Shown here: positions 2,521-55,860 of the stretch, in pieces | Layout: each line of letters starts with the position of its first letter | Numbering within the stretch: the first letter of the stretch is position 1 | IMG/VR virus record: IMGVR_UViG_2824317532_000001 | Location: 1-64,000 of that record | Source of the DNA: a virus | Lineage: Duplodnaviria > Caudoviricetes | Length of the DNA: 64,000 bases | Direction: 5' to 3' (one strand) | Translations under genes and position numbers: made by a program | Notes under the pieces: model-generated | Database searches by the model: none | What the model was told of the DNA's origin: nothing | The model's input: only the letters and a program-made list of their open reading frames with translations

Positions 2521-2645
2521 GCGCCCACCGGTGGTGGCGTGCGTGGCGAATTCGCCGTAGCCGCAAGAACGTGCCGCCGTACAGCGTGGCTGAGCTGGCG
2601 GAACTGATCGCTGAGGTTCGCCGGCCGACCGGAGGCCAGTCGTGA
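2517..2645 (+). CDS. small hypothetical protein (42 aa)
   Basis: Not in ORF track; bridges ATGA overlap at 2517 and GTGA overlap at 2642. Confidence 0.5.
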   Translation: MSAHRWWRAWRIRRSRKNVPPYSVAELAELIAEVRRPTGGQS

Positions 2646-3499
2646 GTGACCTGTGCTTCTACCTCGGTACCCATCAGCCGCACTGGCTGGCATCACCTGC
2701 ACTCCCCCGCGACGCCAACCTGTTCATCTCCCACCGCCGCCTCGCCGGCCGCAAGTCGCTGCCGAAGGCGCGGGTGCGGTGGGCGCTTGATTCCGGCGGC
2801 TTCTCGGAGTTGTCGATGTTCGGGGAGTGGCGGACCAGCCCGGCCGAGTATGTGGCTGCGGTGCAGCGGTACGACGACGAGATCGGCTTGCTGGGATGGG
2901 CGGCGCCTCAAGACTGGATGGCAGAGCCGTTCATGCTGGCGAAGACGGGCCTGTCGGTGGAGGAGCATCAGCGGCGGACGGTCGCGAACTTCCTGGAACT
3001 ACGGGCGATGTGGCAGGCCATCGACCCATCGGACGAGTTGCGGTCGGCTCCCGAGTTCTGTGTGTTCATGCCTGTGCTGCAGGGCTGGCGGCTTGCCGAC
3101 TATTTGCGGTGCGCGGACATGTACGCCGACGCCGGGGTGGATCTGACCCACTTTCCGGTGGTCGGCGTGGGATCGGTGTGCCGGCGGCAGGCTACGGATG
3201 AGATCGGTGAGATCTTCGAAACTCTGTCCGTGTTGGACATCGACATGCACGGCTTCGGTGTGAAGTCGGTCGGGCTGCGCCGGTATGGCCGCTACCTGTC
3301 GAGCGCGGACAGTATGGCCTGGTCGTTTCAGGCGCGGCGTGCCGAGCGGCTGCCGGGATGCGTCGGGCACAAGAACTGCGCCAACTGTCTCCGTTACGCG
3401 CTCAAGTGGCGGGCGGAGATGCTCGGCTCGCTCGCCGGTCAGGAAGAGGCGTTCCAGCCTGCCTTGCCGTTGTGGGCGGGGACGGGGGCAGCTGCATGA
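2642..3499 (+). CDS. DpdA-like / tRNA-guanine transglycosylase-fold DNA base-exchange protein
   Basis: TGT-type motifs LDSGGF, PQDWM, PVLQG, GVGSV, HGFG, SADS and a C-terminal CxxHxxCxxC Zn site. Confidence 0.8.
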   Translation: MSDLCFYLGTHQPHWLASPALPRDANLFISHRRLAGRKSLPKARVRWALDSGGFSELSMFGEWRTSPAEYVAAVQRYDDEIGLLGWAAPQDWMAEPFMLAKTGLSVEEHQRRTVANFLELRAMWQAIDPSDELRSAPEFCVFMPVLQGWRLADYLRCADMYADAGVDLTHFPVVGVGSVCRRQATDEIGEIFETLSVLDIDMHGFGVKSVGLRRYGRYLSSADSMAWSFQARRAERLPGCVGHKNCANCLRYALKWRAEMLGSLAGQEEAFQPALPLWAGTGAAA

Positions 3500-30653: not shown

Positions 30654-31169
30654 ATGCCCGCCTCACGAGCAAAACGCGCCGACACCGCCCAGCGACGCCG
30701 CCAAGCCATCGACATGCGCATGGCCGGCGCCTCATACCAGCGCATCGCCGATCAGCTCGGCTACACCAGCCGCGGTGCCGCATGCCAAGACATCACCCGC
30801 GCCCTCGAGCAAGCCGTCGCCGAACAGATCATCTCCGCCGAGGCCTACCGCGAAGAAGAGTTGCAGCGCCTCGACGCGCTCCTCGCCGAAGCATGGGCCG
30901 TCCTCAAACGCGAGCACCTGACCGTCTCCCACGGCAAGGTCGTGTACGACGACACCACCGGGCAGCCGATCCTCGACGACGGACCCACGCTCGCCGCGAT
31001 CGACCGCATCCTCAAGATTCAAGAACGGCGTTCGAAGTACCTCGGCTTGGATGCCCCCACCCGCGTGGAGGCGATCACGATTGACAGCCTCGACGCTGAA
31101 ATCGCCAAGCTTGCCGCCGAGCTTGAAGGCGATCAAGCTGGAGAAGCTGCGGGAACTCCGCAGACTTAA
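30654..31169 (+). CDS. terminase small subunit
   Basis: RRRQAIDMRMAGASYQRIADQLGY HTH, AIDRILKIQERRSKYLGLDAP; precedes TerL. Confidence 0.8.
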   Translation: MPASRAKRADTAQRRRQAIDMRMAGASYQRIADQLGYTSRGAACQDITRALEQAVAEQIISAEAYREEELQRLDALLAEAWAVLKREHLTVSHGKVVYDDTTGQPILDDGPTLAAIDRILKIQERRSKYLGLDAPTRVEAITIDSLDAEIAKLAAELEGDQAGEAAGTPQT

Positions 31170-32700
31170 AGCCGAGAAGGAACACCGCAAGGCCGCCGAA
31201 GCGCGGGCCAAACGCGACGCCAACCGCAAGCGCTGGCCCAGCCCTCTGGACATGGCAGCGGATCTCGATCCGCCGCGGCTCGACGAAAACGGCGACCGGG
31301 CCGGCGCATGGCGCACTCCCGCGCTCGAACTCATCAACACCGCCCTCGTCGACCTGGCCGAAGGCCGGGAGAAGCGGCTAGCCGCGTTCATGAGCCCTCA
31401 AGAGGGCAAGTCGACGACCGTCTCGTTCTGGTTCCCGCTGTGGCTGCTCACCTGTGTTAACCCCAACCTACGCATTCTGATCATCTCGTATTCCGACGAG
31501 ATGGCCCGCCGGTGGGGCGCCGAAATCAAAGACGCCCTCGAACGCTGGTCCGGCGACGAAGGCACCATCGACCTCGGCCTCCGACTACGCAAAGACTCCC
31601 GCGCAGCCGGCCGCTGGAACATCGCCGGGCACAAGGGCTCCGTCTACTGCGCCGGCATCGCCGGATCCATCACCGGCAAACCCGGCGACGTGATCCTCGT
31701 TGACGACCCGCTCAAAAACATGAGCGAAGCCCAGTCGGAGAAGATCCGCGAAAAGGCCATGTCGGTCTACCGCTCCGCGATCGTGCCCCGGCTCGGCCCG
31801 TCAGCACGAATGGGATGGATCCAAACGTGCTGGCACGAGTCCGAGCCGATCCGGCAGATCCTCGCCAACGAAGGCGAACGCAAGAACGGCGGCCGGTGGC
31901 GCACCATCACCATCCCCGCGATCGCGGACTCCCCCAATGACGACCTCGGCCGGAAGATCGGCGAATGGCAGGAATCGGCTCGCGGCGAACGAGACTGGGC
32001 GGGCATCCGCAAGACCGTCGGCGAATACGTGTTCTCCGCCCTCTACCAGCAGCGGCCCAGCCCCGCCGAAGGCAACCTGTTCAAACGAATCTGGTGGCGC
32101 TACTGGTCGCATGCCCCACAGACCGGCGCTAGCCCGCGCCTGGACCTCGGTGGCCGGATCTTCGACTTGCAGGACTGCTGGCGGTTCGCGACCGTCGACC
32201 TCGCCAACTCGACGAAGACGTCCGGCGACTGGACGGTCATCTCCGCATGGGCGCGCAGCATCGACGGCGACCTGGTCCTACTTGACCGCACCCGGGCGAA
32301 GATCGGCGAAATCGACCACTTCACCCACGCCCGGCCGCTCGTACAGCGCTGGCAGCTCGACACCCTGTACGTCGAACAATCCCAGTACGGCACCACACTG
32401 GTCCGTGAAGCAACCAACGACCGAGTGCCGATCGCACCGCTGGTCGCTGACACCGACAAACTGAGCCGCGCCCTGCCCGCGTCGGCGTGGGCGTCGAACG
32501 GCCGGATCTGGTTACCTGCCGGCGCCGACTGGATCAAAACGTGGGTGGACGAGTTCGCCGGGTTCCCGAACGCCGCCCACGACGACCAGGTAGACACACT
32601 CGCCTACGCGGTTCGTGTCGCGGTGACAAAGTGGGCGCCACCGCCGCCTCGCCCACCGGACCAGTCATCGGGCGGAGACCCGCTGAACAGCCCGATGTGA
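31081..32700 (+). CDS. terL: terminase large subunit
   Basis: SPQEGKST Walker A, ILVDDP Walker B, LYQQRPSP, TVDLA, FPNAAHDDQVD; GGAGG before TTG at 31081. Confidence 0.92.
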   Translation: MTASTLKSPSLPPSLKAIKLEKLRELRRLKAEKEHRKAAEARAKRDANRKRWPSPLDMAADLDPPRLDENGDRAGAWRTPALELINTALVDLAEGREKRLAAFMSPQEGKSTTVSFWFPLWLLTCVNPNLRILIISYSDEMARRWGAEIKDALERWSGDEGTIDLGLRLRKDSRAAGRWNIAGHKGSVYCAGIAGSITGKPGDVILVDDPLKNMSEAQSEKIREKAMSVYRSAIVPRLGPSARMGWIQTCWHESEPIRQILANEGERKNGGRWRTITIPAIADSPNDDLGRKIGEWQESARGERDWAGIRKTVGEYVFSALYQQRPSPAEGNLFKRIWWRYWSHAPQTGASPRLDLGGRIFDLQDCWRFATVDLANSTKTSGDWTVISAWARSIDGDLVLLDRTRAKIGEIDHFTHARPLVQRWQLDTLYVEQSQYGTTLVREATNDRVPIAPLVADTDKLSRALPASAWASNGRIWLPAGADWIKTWVDEFAGFPNAAHDDQVDTLAYAVRVAVTKWAPPPPRPPDQSSGGDPLNSPM

Positions 32701-32727
32701 TAGACGCTGGTGAGGTGGTGGTCTCCG

Positions 32728-34821
32728 GTGACCGCCCCAACCTCCGTGAAGGGCTTCGTCGATCCGTACACGCTCGGCACCGATTTCGGGTCCCTGTACG
32801 TTGACCTGCTCGAGCACGTGCCCGACCTGACGTGGCCGCTGTCGGTTCCGGTGTACGCGAAGATGCGCCGCGATCCTCAGCTGACCGCCATCTTGCAGGG
32901 CTGGACGTTGCAGTTGCGGCGCGCCCAGTGGCAGATCGACCCGGCCGGCTGCCGGCCCGAGGTGGTGTCGGCGGTCGCGGACGGGCTCGGGCTCGCGGTG
33001 GCGGGCGCGGACAAGCCGGGTGCGGCGCGGCTGCGTGGCGTTTCCTGGAGCGAGCATCTCCAGGCCGCGTTGCGTGCGCTGACGTTCGGGCACGCGGCGT
33101 TCGAGATGCAGGCGGACGTGTCCAGCGGCAAGGCACTGCTGTCGGGGCTGTGGGAGCGCCCGCAGTGGACGATCTCCCACATCCACGTGGACGGGAAGAC
33201 CGGCCTACTCGAGGGCATCACCCAGGACGCGGCAACCAACCTCGTTAGCCCGCAGATCAAGGCTGACCGGCTCGTCTGGTACGTCGCCGACCGGGAAGGC
33301 GCGAACTGGGCGGGCACCTCTCTACTGCGGCCCGCCTACGCTGCGTGGCTCATCAAGGAGGAGATGCGGCGCGTCCACGCCATCGCCAACCGAAGATGGG
33401 GCATGGGCGTCCCCGTCATGGAGGCGCTGCCCGGCACGAACCCGACCAGCGGGCAGATGACCGAAGCCATGCAGTTGGCTGCCGCCGCCCGATCCGGGGA
33501 ACAGGCCGGCGCGGCGACTCCGCCTGGCTTCACCCTCAAGATTCAGGGACTCTCGGGTAGTGTGCCGGACACGCTGTCGTTCATGCGCTGGCTCGATCAG
33601 CAGATGTCCCGCGCCGCCCTGATGGGCATGCTGGACCTCGGCGAGACACCGAACGGATCCCGCGCCCTTGGCGAAACGTTCGTCGACGCGTTCCTGCTTG
33701 CCCTCGAGGCGACCGCCGAAGCCGTCGCGGACACCGCCACCCGGCAGGCAGCGGCACGAATCGTCGACTGGAACTGGGGCGCCGACGAACCCGTCCCCCG
33801 CATCGTGGTGTCCGGCGTCGGTAGCCGGCGCGAAGTCACCGCTGAGGCGCTGCAAATGCTTCTCGCCTCCGGTGGGCTCGCCTCCGACCCTGGTCTCGAG
33901 GCGTGGATCCGTCGTGAATGGCGGCTGCCAGAACGTGAGGGTATGGCCCAGCCGAAGCCGACTGCGCCGGGCGTGGACCTGCCGGACAAGGACGAGAAGC
34001 CGCCCGCCGAACCCGAGCAAGAGGTTGCGGCGGCAGCCAAGCCTCGCCCGCGGTCGCGGCGCCGTACTCAGCAGCCGTCACTGTTCGACGACGACGACGG
34101 GGAATCTGACGCGGCCCGCATTCAGCAGCAGTGGGATCAGGCGAAAGCCCGGCTGCTGCGCCGCTGGCCGAAACTGGCGGCACCTTTGGTCGGCGAACTC
34201 GCCGACCAGGCGCAGGCCGCCGTAGAAGTCGGCGACCTGGGACTGCTCGGGCAGCTGCAGGCGTCCGCCGGTGTGGTCGCCGCGCTGGCGGTGCCGCTAC
34301 GAAAGTCGGGCACCGACCTGGCTGCGGAGGCTGCAGCCGGGGTGGTGGCGGAGGCCGCCGCCCAGGACACCGTCATCGACGTGCCGGCCGAGCCGGGCGC
34401 GGACCGGGTGCAGCAGCACGCGGACGCCGTCGCCCGCATCATCGCCGCCGGCTACGCCTCCGGTGCGGCCCGAACCAGCCTGCAACTCGCCGGAGCTGCG
34501 CCGCAGGAAGTCCGCAACGAGGTAGAGCGGCATCTCACCGAACTGGGAACCTCGGTGAACGGCCTGGTCGGCGACAACATCGGCAGCCTGCTCAGTGCCG
34601 CACAGTTCGCTGGCCGCCTCGCTGTCCTCGAGGAAAACCCGGCCACGGCATATCGGGCGAACGAGACGCCGGACCGGAACACCTGCGACCCCTGCAAGGC
34701 CATCAACGGGACCGAGTTTCAGACGCTGCGGGCCGCGCTCGCCGCCTACCCGCTGTCGGGCCAGCACGCCGCGTGCGAGGGGCGTTCACGCTGCCGCGGG
34801 TTCATCGTTCCGATCTTCTAG
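32728..34821 (+). CDS. portal protein (DUF935-like) fused to MuF-like minor head domain
   Basis: YAKMRRDPQL, FGHAAFE, GTSLLRPAY..W..K, RWGMGVP, GSRALG; C-terminal DRNTCDPC..CEGRSRCRG. Confidence 0.85.
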   Translation: MTAPTSVKGFVDPYTLGTDFGSLYVDLLEHVPDLTWPLSVPVYAKMRRDPQLTAILQGWTLQLRRAQWQIDPAGCRPEVVSAVADGLGLAVAGADKPGAARLRGVSWSEHLQAALRALTFGHAAFEMQADVSSGKALLSGLWERPQWTISHIHVDGKTGLLEGITQDAATNLVSPQIKADRLVWYVADREGANWAGTSLLRPAYAAWLIKEEMRRVHAIANRRWGMGVPVMEALPGTNPTSGQMTEAMQLAAAARSGEQAGAATPPGFTLKIQGLSGSVPDTLSFMRWLDQQMSRAALMGMLDLGETPNGSRALGETFVDAFLLALEATAEAVADTATRQAAARIVDWNWGADEPVPRIVVSGVGSRREVTAEALQMLLASGGLASDPGLEAWIRREWRLPEREGMAQPKPTAPGVDLPDKDEKPPAEPEQEVAAAAKPRPRSRRRTQQPSLFDDDDGESDAARIQQQWDQAKARLLRRWPKLAAPLVGELADQAQAAVEVGDLGLLGQLQASAGVVAALAVPLRKSGTDLAAEAAAGVVAEAAAQDTVIDVPAEPGADRVQQHADAVARIIAAGYASGAARTSLQLAGAAPQEVRNEVERHLTELGTSVNGLVGDNIGSLLSAAQFAGRLAVLEENPATAYRANETPDRNTCDPCKAINGTEFQTLRAALAAYPLSGQHAACEGRSRCRGFIVPIF

Positions 34822-35074: not shown

Positions 35075-37597
35075 ATGCCTGACGTGGAACTCGCCCGCCG
35101 TGAAGGCGTCGAGCTGGTCCGCACCGGCAGGTTCCAAACCCTCACCGGCTCGTGGAACCCGACACCGAAAGACATTCAGGCCGCCGTCGAGGCCATGGAC
35201 TGCCCGGCGATCCGAAAGCCGGTTATCCGGCTTGGGCACACCGACGATCGGTTCGTGCCTCGCGGCGACGGGGAGCCGGCACTCGGCTGGTTCGAGAACC
35301 TGCGTGCCGCTGACGGCGGGCACACGCTGGTCGCCGACCAGGTGACGCTGCCGTGGCTGCATTCGGTTCAGGCTGCCGCCTACCCATCGCGGTCGATCGA
35401 GGGCAACTACAACCATCGCTGTTCCGAAGGCCACCTGCACCCGTTCGTCATTCACACCGTCGCCCTGCTTGGTGTAACCCCGCCCGGGGTGCAGACGCTG
35501 CGGTCGTTGAACGACCTGCCAGAGATGCTCGGGGTCGCCGCAACCGGTGAGGTACCCGAGGGTGCCGAGCATGTGCAGGTGACGGTCCTGGCGGGCCGGC
35601 ACTCGTTCGACGAGTCGAAACATGCCCGCGACGACGACGGCAAGTTCACGTCCGGGTCCGGTGGCGGCGGTGGTGACGGATCGCCTGTTCAGCCTGCCCC
35701 AGCCTCCGGGCTGAAACGCAATGAGCGGCTCGCGAAACGCATCCCTCTCGGCAAGGGCGAAACGTATGTCGGCAGCGGCACCGTCCGTGACGGCGGGTTC
35801 GCGGTCGCCGCCGTGGACGGCCCGGACGGGCGCACCGTCCGGCTCGGTGTCGGCATCGACCCCGACGAGATCGGCCAGTGGTCCGGCGCCAACCGGGGCG
35901 GAACGGTCGTCCTCGACCAGGAACGTCTCGACCAAACCCGCGAGGCGATCGCCCAGCTCCTCGAAGCGGCAAAGACCGGAAAAGCCAAGGTCCGTGCCCT
36001 GCATAAGGAATGGGACCGGCTCGAAGCGGCCGAGAACAAACTCTTTGGCAAGTCGTCGATGTCGGAGTCCGACGAGAACAAGTTGGACGAGATCCGGGAA
36101 CAGCGGAAAGCCAACGAGGACGCGCTGGACAAGCTCGCCGACTTCGGTGTCCTCGAAGAGGGCGTGATTCACGCCGAGTGGGGTGACCTGCACCTGCAGG
36201 CGTACATGTCCGACGACAGCCCGCAGTTCAAGGTCGAGGTGAAAGCGAGCCGGGAAGCGCCGTCCCGGTTCGACGAGATCCTCGAAGTGCGACACCTGAC
36301 CAGGCTCGCAGCCCTACTGGAGAAGGCGGGCGCCGCGAAACCGGTGCAGGCCGCCGCCGCGCAGGTTCAGGCCGCCGCCGAGGTGCACACGGGCGCGATG
36401 GTGGCGCTCATCCCCACGCCCGAGGACGCGGCACGGCTGGCGGTCGAGGGCGGGGAACCGGCCGAGGAACTGCACGTCACGCTCGCTTACCTCGGTGAGG
36501 CTGCTGCCCTCGGCGCCCGCGGCAGGCAGGACGTCATCGACGGCGTCTCCACCGCAGCCAACGGTCTCCCCCAGTTCGAGGCCGAAGCGTTCGCGTTGAA
36601 CGTCTTCAACCCGCCGGGTGCGCAACGCGACGACGGCCAAGATCGGGACACCTGTCTGGTGCTCGGCTTGTCCGGGGACCCCATCGACGCCGTCCACGAC
36701 CTGGTGGCCGAAGCGCTACGTGAGGCGTTGTGGTCGATCGACGTCCCGCCGCAGCATCGCCCGTGGCACGCGCATATGACCTTGGAGTACACCGAGGATC
36801 TGTCGAAGCTGGCCAACCTGGTCGACCGGATCGGGCCGGTCCGGTTCGACCGGATCCGCGTGGCGTTCGGCGGCGAGCACATCGACATCCCGCTGATCGG
36901 CCCAGACGAAGACGACATGGTCGCGGCGAGTGCCGCGATCCGTGGCCGGATCCCGCCGATCCGGGAACGCCTGGCCCGGCTGGTGGCCGCGGCTGCACCC
37001 GCCGATCCCCCGCCGGAAGACCCGGCATCCAGTCTCCCGGCCGCCGAGCCGGAGCCCAACAAACAAGAGGAGGACCTCGTGTCCCTGAGCGATGAACTGC
37101 GCTCGCGGCTCGGCCTCGCCGACGGCGCCGAGGAGGTCGACGCTCTGGCGGCGATCGACGCGCTGAAGGCGGCGGCCGAGAAGAGCCCCGAGCCGACGGC
37201 GGAGATGATCCAGGCTTCGGCCAACGCGACGGCGAAGGCCGAGCAGGCGGAGGCGGAGAAGGACGAACTCCGCAAGGAGGTCAACGTCCTGGCTTCCCGC
37301 ATGGAGCAGGTCACCACCGAACTCGCGGCGGCGAAGGCCGAGCAGGCGGCAACGGTGAAGGCTTCCGTGCTGGATGACGCCATCAAGCAGGGCAAGATCA
37401 AGCCCGCGGACAAGGCGCAGTGGGAAACCGACTACGACGACGCCCCAGCCGCGATCACCCGGGTTCTCGCTTCCATCGCCCCCGGCACTGCGGTTCCCGT
37501 GATGGCGGCCGGGCACGCCGGGCCGGCCGAACCGACCAGCGGCGACAGCCTGGACGCCGAGTACGAGCGCCTCTTCGGCGAGAAGGCTGGTGCCTGA
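35075..37597 (+). CDS. prohead protease - cargo domain - 2H phosphoesterase - scaffold polyprotein
   Basis: Mu gpI-like protease N-terminus (LGH, PALGW, YPSRSIE); FDESKHARDDDGKF; HVT and HMT 2H motifs; coiled-coil scaffold (AIKQGKIKPA). Confidence 0.82.
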   Translation: MPDVELARREGVELVRTGRFQTLTGSWNPTPKDIQAAVEAMDCPAIRKPVIRLGHTDDRFVPRGDGEPALGWFENLRAADGGHTLVADQVTLPWLHSVQAAAYPSRSIEGNYNHRCSEGHLHPFVIHTVALLGVTPPGVQTLRSLNDLPEMLGVAATGEVPEGAEHVQVTVLAGRHSFDESKHARDDDGKFTSGSGGGGGDGSPVQPAPASGLKRNERLAKRIPLGKGETYVGSGTVRDGGFAVAAVDGPDGRTVRLGVGIDPDEIGQWSGANRGGTVVLDQERLDQTREAIAQLLEAAKTGKAKVRALHKEWDRLEAAENKLFGKSSMSESDENKLDEIREQRKANEDALDKLADFGVLEEGVIHAEWGDLHLQAYMSDDSPQFKVEVKASREAPSRFDEILEVRHLTRLAALLEKAGAAKPVQAAAAQVQAAAEVHTGAMVALIPTPEDAARLAVEGGEPAEELHVTLAYLGEAAALGARGRQDVIDGVSTAANGLPQFEAEAFALNVFNPPGAQRDDGQDRDTCLVLGLSGDPIDAVHDLVAEALREALWSIDVPPQHRPWHAHMTLEYTEDLSKLANLVDRIGPVRFDRIRVAFGGEHIDIPLIGPDEDDMVAASAAIRGRIPPIRERLARLVAAAAPADPPPEDPASSLPAAEPEPNKQEEDLVSLSDELRSRLGLADGAEEVDALAAIDALKAAAEKSPEPTAEMIQASANATAKAEQAEAEKDELRKEVNVLASRMEQVTTELAAAKAEQAATVKASVLDDAIKQGKIKPADKAQWETDYDDAPAAITRVLASIAPGTAVPVMAAGHAGPAEPTSGDSLDAEYERLFGEKAGA
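37079..37597 (+). CDS. nested in-frame scaffold protein
   Basis: Strong internal SD (GAGGAGG) before in-frame GTG at 37079, as in lambda C/Nu3 and Mu I/Z. Confidence 0.6.
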   Translation: MSLSDELRSRLGLADGAEEVDALAAIDALKAAAEKSPEPTAEMIQASANATAKAEQAEAEKDELRKEVNVLASRMEQVTTELAAAKAEQAATVKASVLDDAIKQGKIKPADKAQWETDYDDAPAAITRVLASIAPGTAVPVMAAGHAGPAEPTSGDSLDAEYERLFGEKAGA

Positions 37598-37989
37598 TGG
37601 CTGACTACGCCCCCCTGTGGATGCCCGGTGACGTCATCACCGTCACCACCTCCGCCGCGGTGACCGGCGGCAAGTGCCTCGTCGTCTCTGGCAACGGAAC
37701 CGTCGCCATGTCGTCCGCGTCGTCGGTGAAGTGGGTCGGTGTCGCCGCCTGCGACATCGCCTCTGGTGCGGTCGGCCCGATGCACGGCCGCGGCCAGGTC
37801 CACACGTCGACCGCGGCGGGTGCGATCACTGCCGGGGATCAGCTGGTGACGGCCGCGTCGGGCAACGTGGCCGCGCTCGCGGCTGCCAGCACCGACACGG
37901 CGACCGACATCAACTCCGCCAGGTCGGTGATCGGTATCGCCCTGACGACCGCGGCGGACACGGCCACGGTCACCTGGATGGAGATCTAG
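37597..37989 (+). CDS. capsid decoration/cement protein (DUF2190-like)
   Basis: GVAACDIASG..AAGAITAGDQL..IGIALT. Confidence 0.8.
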   Translation: MADYAPLWMPGDVITVTTSAAVTGGKCLVVSGNGTVAMSSASSVKWVGVAACDIASGAVGPMHGRGQVHTSTAAGAITAGDQLVTAASGNVAALAAASTDTATDINSARSVIGIALTTAADTATVTWMEI

Positions 37990-38085: not shown

Positions 38086-39024
38086 ATGCCTCTGCTGGCA
38101 TACCCGCCGGCCCCGGCGTCCCTGTCGGGTGACCTGCTCACCATCAACCGGATGCTGCAGAATCCTGCAGTCATCCAGCGGCGTCTCAAGATGCTCACCG
38201 ACATCGGGTTCATCGCCGACGAGCTGCTGCCGGCGAAGTACCGGACGTCGGGCGGCTCCGTCGCCTACGAGATCAACGACCAGCCGCTGTTCACCAACCG
38301 CAGCATCACCGCTGTGGCACCGGGCTCTGAGTACCCGCGGGCGCTCCCCCAGTCCGGTACCGCTGCGCTGGCCGCGGTGTCGAAGTGGGGTCAGGCCACC
38401 GAGCTGACCGACGAGCGGATCAAGCGGTCGCTGCCGATGGGTAGCGCGGTGGACTGGGCGCTGCGGATCGTCGTCAACACCATCATCCAGAAGATCGACC
38501 GGCTGGCGATCGCCGCGGTCGCGTCGGCGGTCACCGAGACCGTGGCGGCGGCCGCGGTGTGGACCGGTTCGTCCGCCGACATCCTCCTGGACCTGGAGAA
38601 GTCGAAGGCGGCAGTCGACGGGCAGGAGATGGGCTACAAGGCCGACACCCTGCTGATCGACAACACGCTGTACGCGTACCTCGCCGCCGACGACAAGATC
38701 GCCACCCTGCGGCGTCGGGAGTCCACCGACAACCCGGTGTACGGCGGCGTCATCGAGACGATCGCCGGTCTCAAGGTGCTCAAGACGCCGGTCGCGAACA
38801 TGCCCGGCGCTGCCAGCGCCGCGTGGGTCGTCGACAGCCGTGCCCTCGGCGGGCTGGCCGACGAGAACGAGCTCGACCCGGGCTACGCCTCGTCGGAGAA
38901 CGGCGTGCAGGTCCAGACCCGGCGGGTCGCCGAGCGGGACGCCTGGCACATGTGGGCGCGCCGGATCACCGTGCCGGTGGTCACGGACCCGCTCGCCGGC
39001 CGGAAGATCACGGGTACGTCGTGA
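38086..39024 (+). CDS. major capsid protein
   Basis: VAPGSEYP..KWGQATELTDE HK97-fold pattern; position after decoration gene. Confidence 0.88.
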   Translation: MPLLAYPPAPASLSGDLLTINRMLQNPAVIQRRLKMLTDIGFIADELLPAKYRTSGGSVAYEINDQPLFTNRSITAVAPGSEYPRALPQSGTAALAAVSKWGQATELTDERIKRSLPMGSAVDWALRIVVNTIIQKIDRLAIAAVASAVTETVAAAAVWTGSSADILLDLEKSKAAVDGQEMGYKADTLLIDNTLYAYLAADDKIATLRRRESTDNPVYGGVIETIAGLKVLKTPVANMPGAASAAWVVDSRALGGLADENELDPGYASSENGVQVQTRRVAERDAWHMWARRITVPVVTDPLAGRKITGTS

Positions 39025-46044: not shown

Positions 46045-46587
46045 TTACTGCGGATAGCTCATCTCCAGCCGCGCATGGTTGGCGTCGAGGCACCAGTCAC
46101 AGTTGCACCCAGCGATGCGGTAGATCGCGTCCTCCCACTCCTCCTTCCACTCGTGCCCAATGATGCAGCGATAGCGGATCGTGAGGTTGCCTTCGGCCCA
46201 TTCCATCCGTGTTGGCAGGTGCCCACGGTGCTTGCCGGTGACCGCGTAAGCGCACTTCCAGCACGAACCGCTGAAATGGGCTGGGTCAGTAGGTGGCCCG
46301 ATCACGACGGCGGCGAGTCTCCGCTTGTCGGAGTTGTAAGTGATGTTGTGAACCGGACGCTCGGTGACAATCGCGGACTTCTCGGCGGCCTCGACCTCCT
46401 TGCGGGTGTCGAAGTGCTCCACCTTGACCGTCATAACGTCCCGCCACCAGCCTTTGAGCTTGGCGTGGTCATACCAGCGGATTCCGGGGTCGCCGGTGAT
46501 GCCGATGTAGAGCAGGGCATCAGAGGCGTCGTAGAAGCGATAAAGCGTCTGATCCTGGTCGGCATCTTCTTGTGCAACGATGGTCAC
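46045..46587 (-). CDS. GIY-YIG nuclease with C-terminal Cys/His domain
   Basis: LYRFYD..LLYIGIT..RWYDH..AEKSAI..PVHN. Confidence 0.85.
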   Translation of the reverse strand: MTIVAQEDADQDQTLYRFYDASDALLYIGITGDPGIRWYDHAKLKGWWRDVMTVKVEHFDTRKEVEAAEKSAIVTERPVHNITYNSDKRRLAAVVIGPPTDPAHFSGSCWKCAYAVTGKHRGHLPTRMEWAEGNLTIRYRCIIGHEWKEEWEDAIYRIAGCNCDWCLDANHARLEMSYPQ

Positions 46588-55254: not shown

Positions 55255-55860
55255 ATGGGAGATCGTACCTGTCCCGTCGAGACCGACGGCAAGGCATGCG
55301 GCAAACCGTCCGCGCCGAAGGATTCCCGCCTATGGTGCTCGATGCACCGCAACCGGTGGTACAGGCACGGCGACGTGCACTACCTCGGCAAGCACGGCCT
55401 CGCCAAGACGGCAACTCCGGAGCAGCGCTTCTGGGCGAAGGTGGACGCCGACGGTGACTGCTGGGTCTGGACGGGCGCGATTGGGACCCACGGTTACGGA
55501 ATGTTCCGGAACGAGCATGGCAAGGCGGTTACTGCGCATCGTTACTCGTACGAGTCTTTGATTGGTCCCATTCCAGACGGACTCACCATCGACCATCTGT
55601 GTCGCAACCGCCCATGCATCAATCCGGATCACCTGGAACCTGTGACGCAGGCTGAAAACAACCGCCGCGTCCCCGTTGAAGTGCGTCGCCTCAGCGCGCG
55701 GGTGCCGAGGCCGCCGCGTACGACTTGCAAACACGGGCATCCGTTGTCGGGCGAAAATCTCTACGTGTCTCCCGGTGGCCACCGGGCCTGCCGAACCTGC
55801 GCCAAACGACGCGTCCTGGAGTTCTGCGCCCGAAAGCGGAATCAAGCGCAAGCAGCCTAG
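55255..55860 (+). CDS. HNH homing endonuclease
   Basis: RFWAKV..CWVWTG..GYG..AHRYSY..IDHLCRNRPCINPDHLEPVTQAEN; CKHGH..CRTC. Confidence 0.92.
   Translation: MGDRTCPVETDGKACGKPSAPKDSRLWCSMHRNRWYRHGDVHYLGKHGLAKTATPEQRFWAKVDADGDCWVWTGAIGTHGYGMFRNEHGKAVTAHRYSYESLIGPIPDGLTIDHLCRNRPCINPDHLEPVTQAENNRRVPVEVRRLSARVPRPPRTTCKHGHPLSGENLYVSPGGHRACRTCAKRRVLEFCARKRNQAQAA

Follow-up and report, generated by a model that had tools for sequence, protein, structure and literature searches.

A phage head-maturation polyprotein with a 2H phosphoesterase and a predicted PUR-like module between protease and scaffold

Introduction

Counter-defense proteins that are packaged ahead of infection are known from a few model phages, including the internal proteins of T4 and Dar of P1. 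The T4 internal proteins (IPI*) are loaded by means of a capsid-targeting sequence, trimmed by gp21, and injected to counter host defense. Phage Mu gene I/gpZ and lambda C/Nu3 illustrate a separate principle of head assembly, in which an N-terminal protease and a C-terminal scaffold are encoded in one frame and the scaffold has its own in-frame internal start. Injected enzyme kits have been predicted for many phages by genome surveys and, to our knowledge, almost none of them has been tested. Here, we analyze a 64,000-nucleotide stretch of viral DNA (IMG/VR record IMGVR_UViG_2824317532_000001, positions 1 to 64,000; hereafter the window) in which a single 840-aa open reading frame (ORF) at 35075..37597 (+) encodes a polyprotein of a Mu gpI-type prohead protease, a predicted PUR-alpha-like module, a 2H phosphoesterase domain, and a scaffold.

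The window ORF has the same layout as Mu gpI/gpZ and lambda C/Nu3, including the expectation of much scaffold and little protease fusion, but Mu gpI is not known to contain any inserted enzyme or binding module, whereas the window protein holds about 440 cargo residues between protease and scaffold. T4 IPI* resembles the system that we propose in that cargo enters the procapsid, is freed by the prohead protease, and is injected; it relies, however, on a short N-terminal targeting peptide on separate small proteins, while the window cargo is covalently fused to protease and scaffold. Head-packaged, injected 2H domains that degrade defense nucleotides or RNA have already been proposed (Iyer et al. 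2017, PMC5512222; 2022, PMC9503650), and the polyvalent proteins covered in the available text of these papers likewise combine several effector-type domains in one head-associated polypeptide, with 2H domains that are unlinked to RNA ligases. The window protein contains at least two effector-type domains and is presumably virion-associated. It differs from the described polyvalent proteins in its carrier, as the 2H carriers named there are MuF and portal proteins and ours is a Mu gpI-type protease-scaffold with a nested start. It also differs in its order, since the assemblin-like peptidase of polyvalent proteins is described as always C-terminal (PMC5512222, section 8) and the window protease is N-terminal, with cargo lying between protease and scaffold. 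MuF polymorphic toxins, as presented in the available text of Jamet et al. 2017 (PMC5576092), share a head-interior anchor, swappable effector domains, and an occurrence in temperate phages; unlike them, the window protein does not contain PF04233, and its cargo is internal whereas MuF-toxin effectors are C-terminal.

Our literature search found no paper on the protease-2H-scaffold arrangement, the PUR-like family, or the junction motif described below, although the supplement of PMC5512222, which lay outside the search, may list the arrangement; the junction motif was likewise not found by term searches of the main text of that paper. What differs from printed descriptions or adds to them is a carrier whose protease is N-terminal and whose scaffold has a nested start, the status of this layout as the rule in a lineage, the PUR-like family, the junction peptide, and our reading of published proteomics for phage GMA2. 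The arrangement is real and well formed; the mechanism that we attach to it is largely inferred.

Architecture of the polyprotein

The ORF starts with ATG and reads open across 840 codons. An earlier sequence-only reading of this DNA had divided it into four parts, namely a Mu gpI-like protease, a cargo domain opening with FDESKHARDDDGKF, a complete 2H phosphoesterase with both catalytic motifs, and a scaffold with its own internal start, and each of these parts was recovered here by family matches, structural models, or comparison of loci. That the ORF is instead an assembly or frameshift artefact joining separate protease, enzyme, and scaffold genes is extremely improbable, and we rejected it: the 2H domain is held in 322 matching proteins of 462–1470 aa in a large protein collection (mostly named from Micromonospora, Actinoplanes, and relatives), the frame is free of stops in seven genomes, the viral contig L039 has a matching order of parts, and nothing was found in favor of an artefact.

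The protease occupies residues 1 to ~165 (35075..35569, +). The PHROG profile phrog_3894 (‘head maturation protease’) matches residues 4–188 at E 3.1e-67, and structural neighbors of this part in the Atlas carry PF10123 over the aligned region at TM 0.70–0.73, whereas Pfam itself gave no match for residues 1–175 of the 840-aa protein. Among 121 homologs examined, 92 bear this domain, and His55 and Ser107 are invariant in all 92, which marks them as candidate catalytic residues of a serine protease. C43, C116, H120, and H122 are also invariant in the 92 homologs and could together form a zinc site; we know of no such site described for prohead proteases.

At the other end of the protein lies the scaffold, matched by PF10123, phrog_2976, and phrog_328, with a predicted nested product of ~172 aa (37079..37597, +). 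The PF10123 match covers residues 659–829 and corresponds to positions 142–313 of the 330-position profile, its C-terminal half (38.3 bits against a cut-off of 25.2). A putative internal ribosome-binding site with a conserved Shine-Dalgarno (SD)-like core precedes this product (37065..37081 with the start codon, +): AAGAGGAGGA lies at 37065–37074 and is followed by a GTG at 37079, codon 669 of the ORF. This is the only SD-like core in the 2523-nt ORF that has an in-frame start 4–10 nt downstream. We compared the site with those of six relatives that are 43–62% identical to the window in this stretch, and found that the series GGAGGA, four nucleotides, GTG or TTG, and TCC is kept in all seven distinct loci. 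The start codon is GTG in six and TTG in one, and in two loci it stands one codon before the aligned residue; in a genome rich in G+C, a TTG at this position is more in keeping with a start codon than with a plain Leu. Upstream of the ORF’s own start there is just a weak GAGG, and the strong internal SD thus fits the production of more scaffold than fusion. As judged from these conserved signals, the C-terminal scaffold would also be made alone.

The 2H domain is intact and lies nearer LigT/ThpR than Acb1

Residues 439–609 (36389..36901, +) match PF13563 at 33.7 bits against a cut-off of 27 and are predicted to form a LigT/ThpR-like 2H phosphoesterase. Both HxT motifs are present at the positions that had been read from the sequence. 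In the first, H467-V-T469 (36473..36481, +), the His and Thr are invariant in 60 of 60 aligned homologs; in the second, H567-M-T569 (36773..36781, +), the His is invariant and the Thr is kept in at least 90% of the same 60. A confident structural model (pLDDT 90.6, pTM 0.84), derived from 60 sequences, adopts the expected 2H fold.

Foldseek against the PDB returned archaeal and bacterial LigT, Usb1, and plant cyclic phosphodiesterase (CPDase) first, with a best E of 3.8e-7, and Acb1 at rank 40 with E 3.4e-4. A VIA search gave 69 chains at Z ≥ 8, among them Thermus thermophilus TT0787 (1iuh; Z 16.0, rmsd 3.1, 161 residues aligned), the Pyrococcus horikoshii 2'-5' RNA-ligase-like protein (1vdx; Z 15.3), drCPDase (5h7e; Z 15.2), a phosphoesterase (4qak; Z 14.8), and human Usb1 (6d31; Z 14.6). 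Acb1 (7t26) reached Z 11.1 with an rmsd of 3.3 over 130 of 137 residues at 22% identity, and 37 PDB entries rank above it. Sequence profiles show the same preference: in hhalign, the family profile scored 82.6% against Escherichia coli ThpR over 89 columns spanning both motifs, with the first motif H-V-T-L-A-Y-L-G aligned to the first motif of ThpR, and 15.4% over 50 columns against T4 57B/Acb1. The whole protein, used as a sequence query, matched no PDB chain at E ≤ 1, and the family profile reached only E 0.11, to E. coli LigT.

These results bear on the label Acb1-like, which the sequence-only reading had given the domain and which we could not uphold. T4 Acb1 (57B) and Erwinia phage FBB1 Acb1 (7T26/7T27) are phage 2H enzymes with two HxT motifs (Hobbs et al. 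2022, PMC9117128, available text) and the shared fold speaks for kinship, as does a sub-threshold match of the Pfam Acb1 model to a related protein, Orf10 of phage GMA2 (19.6 bits against a cut-off of 27). However, Acb1 is a small stand-alone protein of ~150 aa, and the Pfam Acb1 model (PF23474) gives no row at E ≤ 1 for the 840-aa protein. With the profile and structure rankings pointing the same way, we rejected an Acb1 orthologue and consider it very unlikely that the domain belongs to the Acb1 family proper and destroys signals of cyclic oligonucleotide-based antiphage signaling systems (CBASS). In phage T4 (L026:5592-6411), 57B (acb1, annotated ‘RNA ligase’) adjoins ipI, the gene of a head-internal injected protein.

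A ThpR orthologue was rejected as well, because the ThpR equivalog model TIGR02258 scored 25.5 bits against its cut-off of 65.7. LigT (ThpR) RNA 2',3'-cyclic phosphodiesterases (1IUH, 1VDX, 4QAK/5LDI) are the best structural match, at Z 14.8–16.0, and the best profile match, yet identity is just ~15–21%, and the window clade is phage-borne and embedded in head proteins. Taken together, sequence and model indicate a catalytically intact 2H enzyme of its own divergent clade, nearer to LigT/ThpR than to Acb1. Fold similarity does not fix its substrate.

One reading of these affinities is that the domain is an RNA-end enzyme, either a 2',3'-cyclic phosphodiesterase or a Usb1-like 3' exoribonuclease, that is delivered or acts late and would heal or trim tRNA, mRNA, or crRNA cut by host nucleases. 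Its nearest relatives by sequence and structure are indeed RNA 2',3'-cyclic phosphodiesterases and Usb1, the adjoining PUR-like module may bind single-stranded nucleic acid, and section 20 of Iyer et al. 2017 (PMC5512222) favors an RNase role for 2H domains fused to MuF or portal proteins. On the other hand, no RNA ligase or polynucleotide kinase is found among the 82 ORF translations of the window, in agreement with the statement in the same section that such 2H versions never associate with RNA ligases. Given also its distance from the ThpR equivalog and the breadth of the fold, we consider this reading a rather doubtful one. Because no ligase or kinase partner was found among these translations, three candidate activities are left: a signaling-nucleotide phosphodiesterase, a 2'-5'/cyclic-phosphate RNA-end enzyme, and a Usb1-like RNase.

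The 2H clade is widespread in actinophage head modules

The 2H part alone finds 330 actinophage records (Mycobacterium 204, Gordonia 104, Streptomyces 17, Rhodococcus 4, and Mycolicibacterium 1), of which 328 align over 80% or more of the query, all of them at less than 60% identity. They are annotated as ‘capsid maturation protease and MuF-like fusion protein’, ‘head maturation protease’, or ‘RNA ligase’, and the 2H domain in these records sits in head modules, within MuF, portal-adjacent, and protease proteins. Examples are gp15 of the Streptomyces phage TurkishDelight (1147 aa), Orf18 of the Gordonia phage GTE6 (950 aa; L003:4759-7608), and Catera gp92, a stand-alone gene of 183 aa that lies four genes downstream of the portal.

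Among the best 120 of the 322 homologs in the protein collection, PF10123 is present in 75, MuF (PF04233) in 16, an ADP-ribosyltransferase (PF03496) in four, and a zeta toxin in one. Most protease-type homologs have their first HxT at about residue 200–225, and the usual order is therefore protease, 2H, scaffold, without an insert. The layout with an N-terminal protease and a nested scaffold start is the norm across a large lineage of Micromonosporaceae prophages. Exchange of cargo domains among homologous proteins, for which a survey had been proposed from the sequence, is borne out both by these homologs and by the IMG/VR loci described below.

In 201 sampled genomes of a relative’s family, homologs matched in at least seven, a floor set by the stricter first-pass search used. 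SMODS cyclases occur in 23 of the 201 (including the unpublished genome G066), and a Cas10 palm-domain model scores over its cut-off in 21, although this model also fires in E. coli and is not specific. Since SMODS and Cas10-type palm domains score in these genomes, targets for a signaling-nucleotide phosphodiesterase exist in the host group.

A small domain matched by the 82-residue profile phrog_6439 turns up repeatedly in relatives, either at the C-termini of portal fusions or behind the 2H domain; it occurs in L039, L030, L046, L048, L058, L056, GMA2 Orf11 (L028:10696-12120), and GTE6 Orf18. The window protein is without it.

A 2H protein of the same clade was detected in purified virions

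Published mass spectrometry of purified virions of Gordonia phage GMA2 identified three proteins, Orf9, Orf10, and Orf16 (Dyson et al. 2015, PMC4524720, S5 Table). The first of these is the portal and the last is the capsid protein. Orf10, with 883 aa, is a full-length match of phrog_2659, the PHROG that the window’s 2H domain also matches; it contains an ADP-ribosyltransferase-like region and a C-terminal 2H domain that is 29% identical to the window’s (E 1e-12). We placed its 18 listed peptides on the sequence by eye and found that the last covers the second HxT motif and that three lie in the ADP-ribosyltransferase-like region. These data seem not to have been read previously as virion evidence for a 2H enzyme.

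GMA2 Orf10 and the window protein belong to the same 2H clade, and both are multi-domain cargo proteins encoded in the head module directly after the portal. They differ in that the 2H domain of Orf10 is C-terminal, after the ADP-ribosyltransferase-like region and without protease or scaffold, and in that GMA2 has virion mass spectrometry whereas the window prophage is known from its genes. The sequence-only reading had proposed that the 2H enzyme is enclosed in the virion; for the window protein this is plausible in view of the published detection of its GMA2 clade member.

The middle module is probably a PUR-like nucleic-acid-binding domain

Between protease and 2H domain, residues 176–432 form a module of ~250 aa inserted at the junction of the two. 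Pfam and PHROG gave no match to it, the PurA and DUF3276 models included. A model of this region, which had been called a cargo domain, was built on 37 sequences and is confident (pLDDT 88.7). Residues 229–422 (35759..36340, +) are modeled as a PUR-alpha-like, Whirly-class module with two beta-beta-beta-beta-alpha units, the first helix of which is extended into a long helical hairpin.

In Foldseek, the top 11 listed rows are all Pur-alpha repeat I-II, with a best E of 1.5e-3 and none reaching E 1e-3. A VIA search of 48,161 chains placed Drosophila Pur-alpha (3k44_A) first, at Z 10.5 and an rmsd of 4.3 over 140 of 145 residues; the remaining rows, at Z ≤ 8.9, match the hairpin only. The Atlas’s own model of the module lists PurA (TM 0.49) and PC4/YdbC (TM 0.42) among weak rows. 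The predicted topology is that of PUR-alpha repeat I-II (PDB 3K44, 8CHT), from which the module differs by having no sequence-level match, by the long hairpin insert on its first helix, and by its phage-head context. We therefore assign it, with moderate confidence and from models, to the PUR/Whirly-class fold, and it probably binds nucleic acid.

A full HMMER search found 99 representative relatives of the module, 19 of them at E ≤ 1e-10, where a word-index search had recovered just three. Of these, 48 were scanned with Pfam, and none has a Pfam family on the module region; elsewhere in these proteins we found Mu-like Pro with or without 2H, S78 prohead protease, portal, MuF, ADP-ribosyltransferase, and PG_binding_1 domains. 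In IMG/VR, 38 loci encode relatives of the module; from the best 30 we scanned 27, leaving aside one without a containing ORF and two that exceeded a size limit. The module is a C-terminal extension of the portal in ten of the 27, is fused to a prohead protease in six (one with the window’s order of protease, module, and 2H), and is part of a MuF, module, 2H protein in one. It is a stand-alone gene at most two ORFs from terminase, portal, protease, or capsid genes in another six, and has unrecognizable neighbors in the remaining four; no locus is clearly non-head. By these sequence comparisons, the middle module belongs to a family that appears head-associated and has no Pfam model.

Stand-alone PUR-like members P0123, P0132, P0148, and P0178 have a Cys-rich stretch with C-x-x-C pairs ahead of a leader reading F-N-P-x-E-P-R-D-P-H-S-G-K-W. 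The stretch may be a zinc ribbon.

A junction peptide and candidate cleavage sites in Ala-rich linkers

The N-terminal edge of the inserted module is marked by the leader FDESKHARDDDGKF at residues 178–191 (35606..35647, +; His codon at 35621). A pattern of this type, [FW]-D-E-x-K-H-x-R-D-x-x-G-[KQ]-F, is present in 17 of the 120 best among the 322 2H-family matches, and the 13 of these 17 with the protease architecture always have an extra module as well, either preceding or following the 2H domain. It is also present in 31 of 89 middle-module relatives, 11 of which contain it two to four times, spaced out over protein lengths of 454 to 2311 aa. Judged by its placement in these sequences, the leader marks module boundaries in head-associated multidomain proteins, and it could be a capsid address, a docking strand, or a processing signal.

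The linkers are variable apart from conserved Ala-rich motifs: AAAE before the 2H domain, V-A-A-[A/S] after it (the V and the next two A residues are kept in 50, 47, and 57 of 60 homologs, respectively), and M-V-A-A-S-A-A in the first third of the scaffold. In the window protein, two VQAAA motifs at the module-2H junction (36344..36379, +) and MVAASA and VAAAA in the post-2H linker (36917..36997, +) are candidate cleavage sites. The pattern [VIM]xA[AS][AS] occurs seven times in the 840-aa protein (residues 98, 424, 431, 615/616, 637, and 712) against 0.61 in shuffles, and none of 2000 shuffles reached seven, a statistic that ignores the local Ala-richness of linkers. We offer V-x-A-A-[A/S] as a candidate set of protease sites, a lead for proteomics and not a finding.

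A proposed model for cargo loading and delivery

As a whole, the locus is probably best explained as a cargo-carrying polyprotein. In the model that we propose, abundant nested scaffold and fewer full-length fusions would co-assemble with the capsid protein, and the scaffold end would pull the protease and both cargo modules into the procapsid. The protease would then cut the Ala-rich linkers, at the candidate V-x-A-A-[A/S] sites, and destroy the scaffold, while the two compact modules would stay in the head and exit with the DNA at infection. The 2H enzyme could in this way act ahead of any phage gene expression, most likely on host nucleotide second messengers or on RNA ends with 2',3'-cyclic phosphates or 2'-5' linkages, and the PUR-like module would bind phage DNA or RNA.

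The steps differ in how secure they are. Loading into procapsids is quite likely, and the scaffold presumably drives it; scaffold-mediated loading is supported because the same 2H clade is fused to MuF, portal-adjacent, and protease proteins and because GMA2 Orf10 was detected in virions. Retention in the head and delivery come close to an even call, falling slightly short of it. A counter-defense role on signaling nucleotides is a tentative suggestion only.

Several observations weigh against this model. In Mu, HK97, and lambda, protease and scaffold fragments leave the head, and cargo could therefore be digested or expelled with them; folded domains, moreover, must unfold to pass a siphovirus tail. 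The 2H sequence is closer to RNA 2',3'-cyclic phosphodiesterases than to Acb1, the phage 2H enzyme with a proven anti-defense role. SMODS cyclases occur in none of the seven homolog-bearing genomes, compared with 23 of the 201 sampled, numbers that are too small to weigh. The reservation on the linker statistic given above counts here as well, and for this phage the protein, its cleavage, and its presence in virions are predictions from its genes. Finally, the proteins reported from GTE6 virions were only Orf14, Orf20, and Orf23 and did not include the 2H-bearing ‘head maturation protease’ Orf18 (PMC4524720, available text), which we take as a weak negative from an experiment of low sensitivity.

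The absence of GTE6 Orf18 from the detected proteins, the normal departure of protease and scaffold pieces from maturing heads, and the position of the gene in a late head operon would all suit a different account, in which the fusion is an expression device. The 2H and PUR-like modules would then act in the producing cell late in infection, countering defenses triggered by late structural proteins or repairing RNA, and encapsidated copies would be incidental or degraded. We think this unlikely: portal, MuF, and protease-scaffold proteins, three different anchors in the head interior, all serve as carriers of this 2H clade and of this middle module, a pattern that is hard to obtain through co-expression alone, and purified GMA2 virions yielded Orf10 including a 2H peptide (PMC4524720, S5 Table).

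Beyond the cargo-carrying polyprotein itself, a more speculative extension, to which we give little weight at present, is that actinobacterial phages run a plug-and-play head-cargo system in which portal, MuF, and nested-start protease-scaffold proteins serve as anchors for interchangeable modules and deliver 2H and PUR-like domains. A short W/F-D-E-x-x-H-P-R-D-x-x-G-K-F ‘address/junction’ peptide would stand at the start of each module, with V-x-A-A protease sites at its end. The constant cargo of the Micromonosporaceae lineage would, on this conjecture, be a new 2H clade that removes immune nucleotide signals or RNA-end damage before expression begins, and the PUR-like module might ride along, binding incoming DNA or host or phage RNA.

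A single intact 2H enzyme placed between protease and scaffold makes a clean and abundant test case, and culturable relatives exist among Gordonia, Streptomyces, and Mycobacterium phages. The nested scaffold start would provide a built-in control of cargo copy number, and the junction peptide may serve more generally as an address to the capsid or as a signal for processing. If the 2H enzyme does degrade cyclic oligonucleotides or cyclic-phosphate RNA ends on arrival, temperate phages would be able to blunt signaling immunity before expressing a gene.

Genomic setting

In a scan of public genomes, a contig of 205 kb under the title Actinoplanes campanulatus JCM 3059 (L004) proved to contain an ORF identical to the window’s 840-aa ORF, from which it follows that the window phage is a prophage. 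The phage is a temperate, siphovirus-like prophage of Actinoplanes, and the 840-aa ORF is its head-maturation gene. The window has a G+C content of 67% and contains no tRNA genes in its 64,000 nt, and family-profile scans found phage-type genes across its whole length. These are genes for a DNA methyltransferase, a queuine-tRNA-ribosyltransferase-like protein, an exonuclease, RecT, a dCTP deaminase, and a DnaB helicase, together with the large terminase, Mu-type portal, 840-aa ORF, cement-like, major capsid, major tail, tape measure, and holin genes.

The head genes run in the order portal, 840-aa ORF, cement-like gene, and capsid gene. Upstream of the ORF are the large terminase (31051..32700, +; phrog_38, E 2.6e-95) and the Mu-type portal of 703 aa (32710..34821, +; PF06074 at E 6.4e-51, phrog_113). 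PF06074 covers residues 48–404 of the portal, and ~220 C-terminal residues without a family match follow; in relatives, the C-terminal ends of portals bear the PUR-like module. Downstream are the cement/decoration-like gene (37624..37989, +; PF09956 at E 5.1e-10, phrog_673), for which the start at 37624 is provisional and the listed ORF runs, in a different frame, over the last part of the 840-aa ORF, and the major capsid protein gene (38086..39024, +; phrog_1650 at E 1.4e-71, PF25209).

The queuine tRNA-ribosyltransferase-like gene (2642–3499, +; phrog_1279, E 2.5e-108) adjoins the DNA methyltransferase gene (805–2520, +), and the phage may modify its DNA, for example by a 7-deazaguanine-type pathway, as a separate anti-restriction measure. 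An HNH endonuclease gene (55255–55860, +) lies within the tail-gene block and a second endonuclease gene (46045–46587, −) in the head-tail region; both are likely homing-type insertions.

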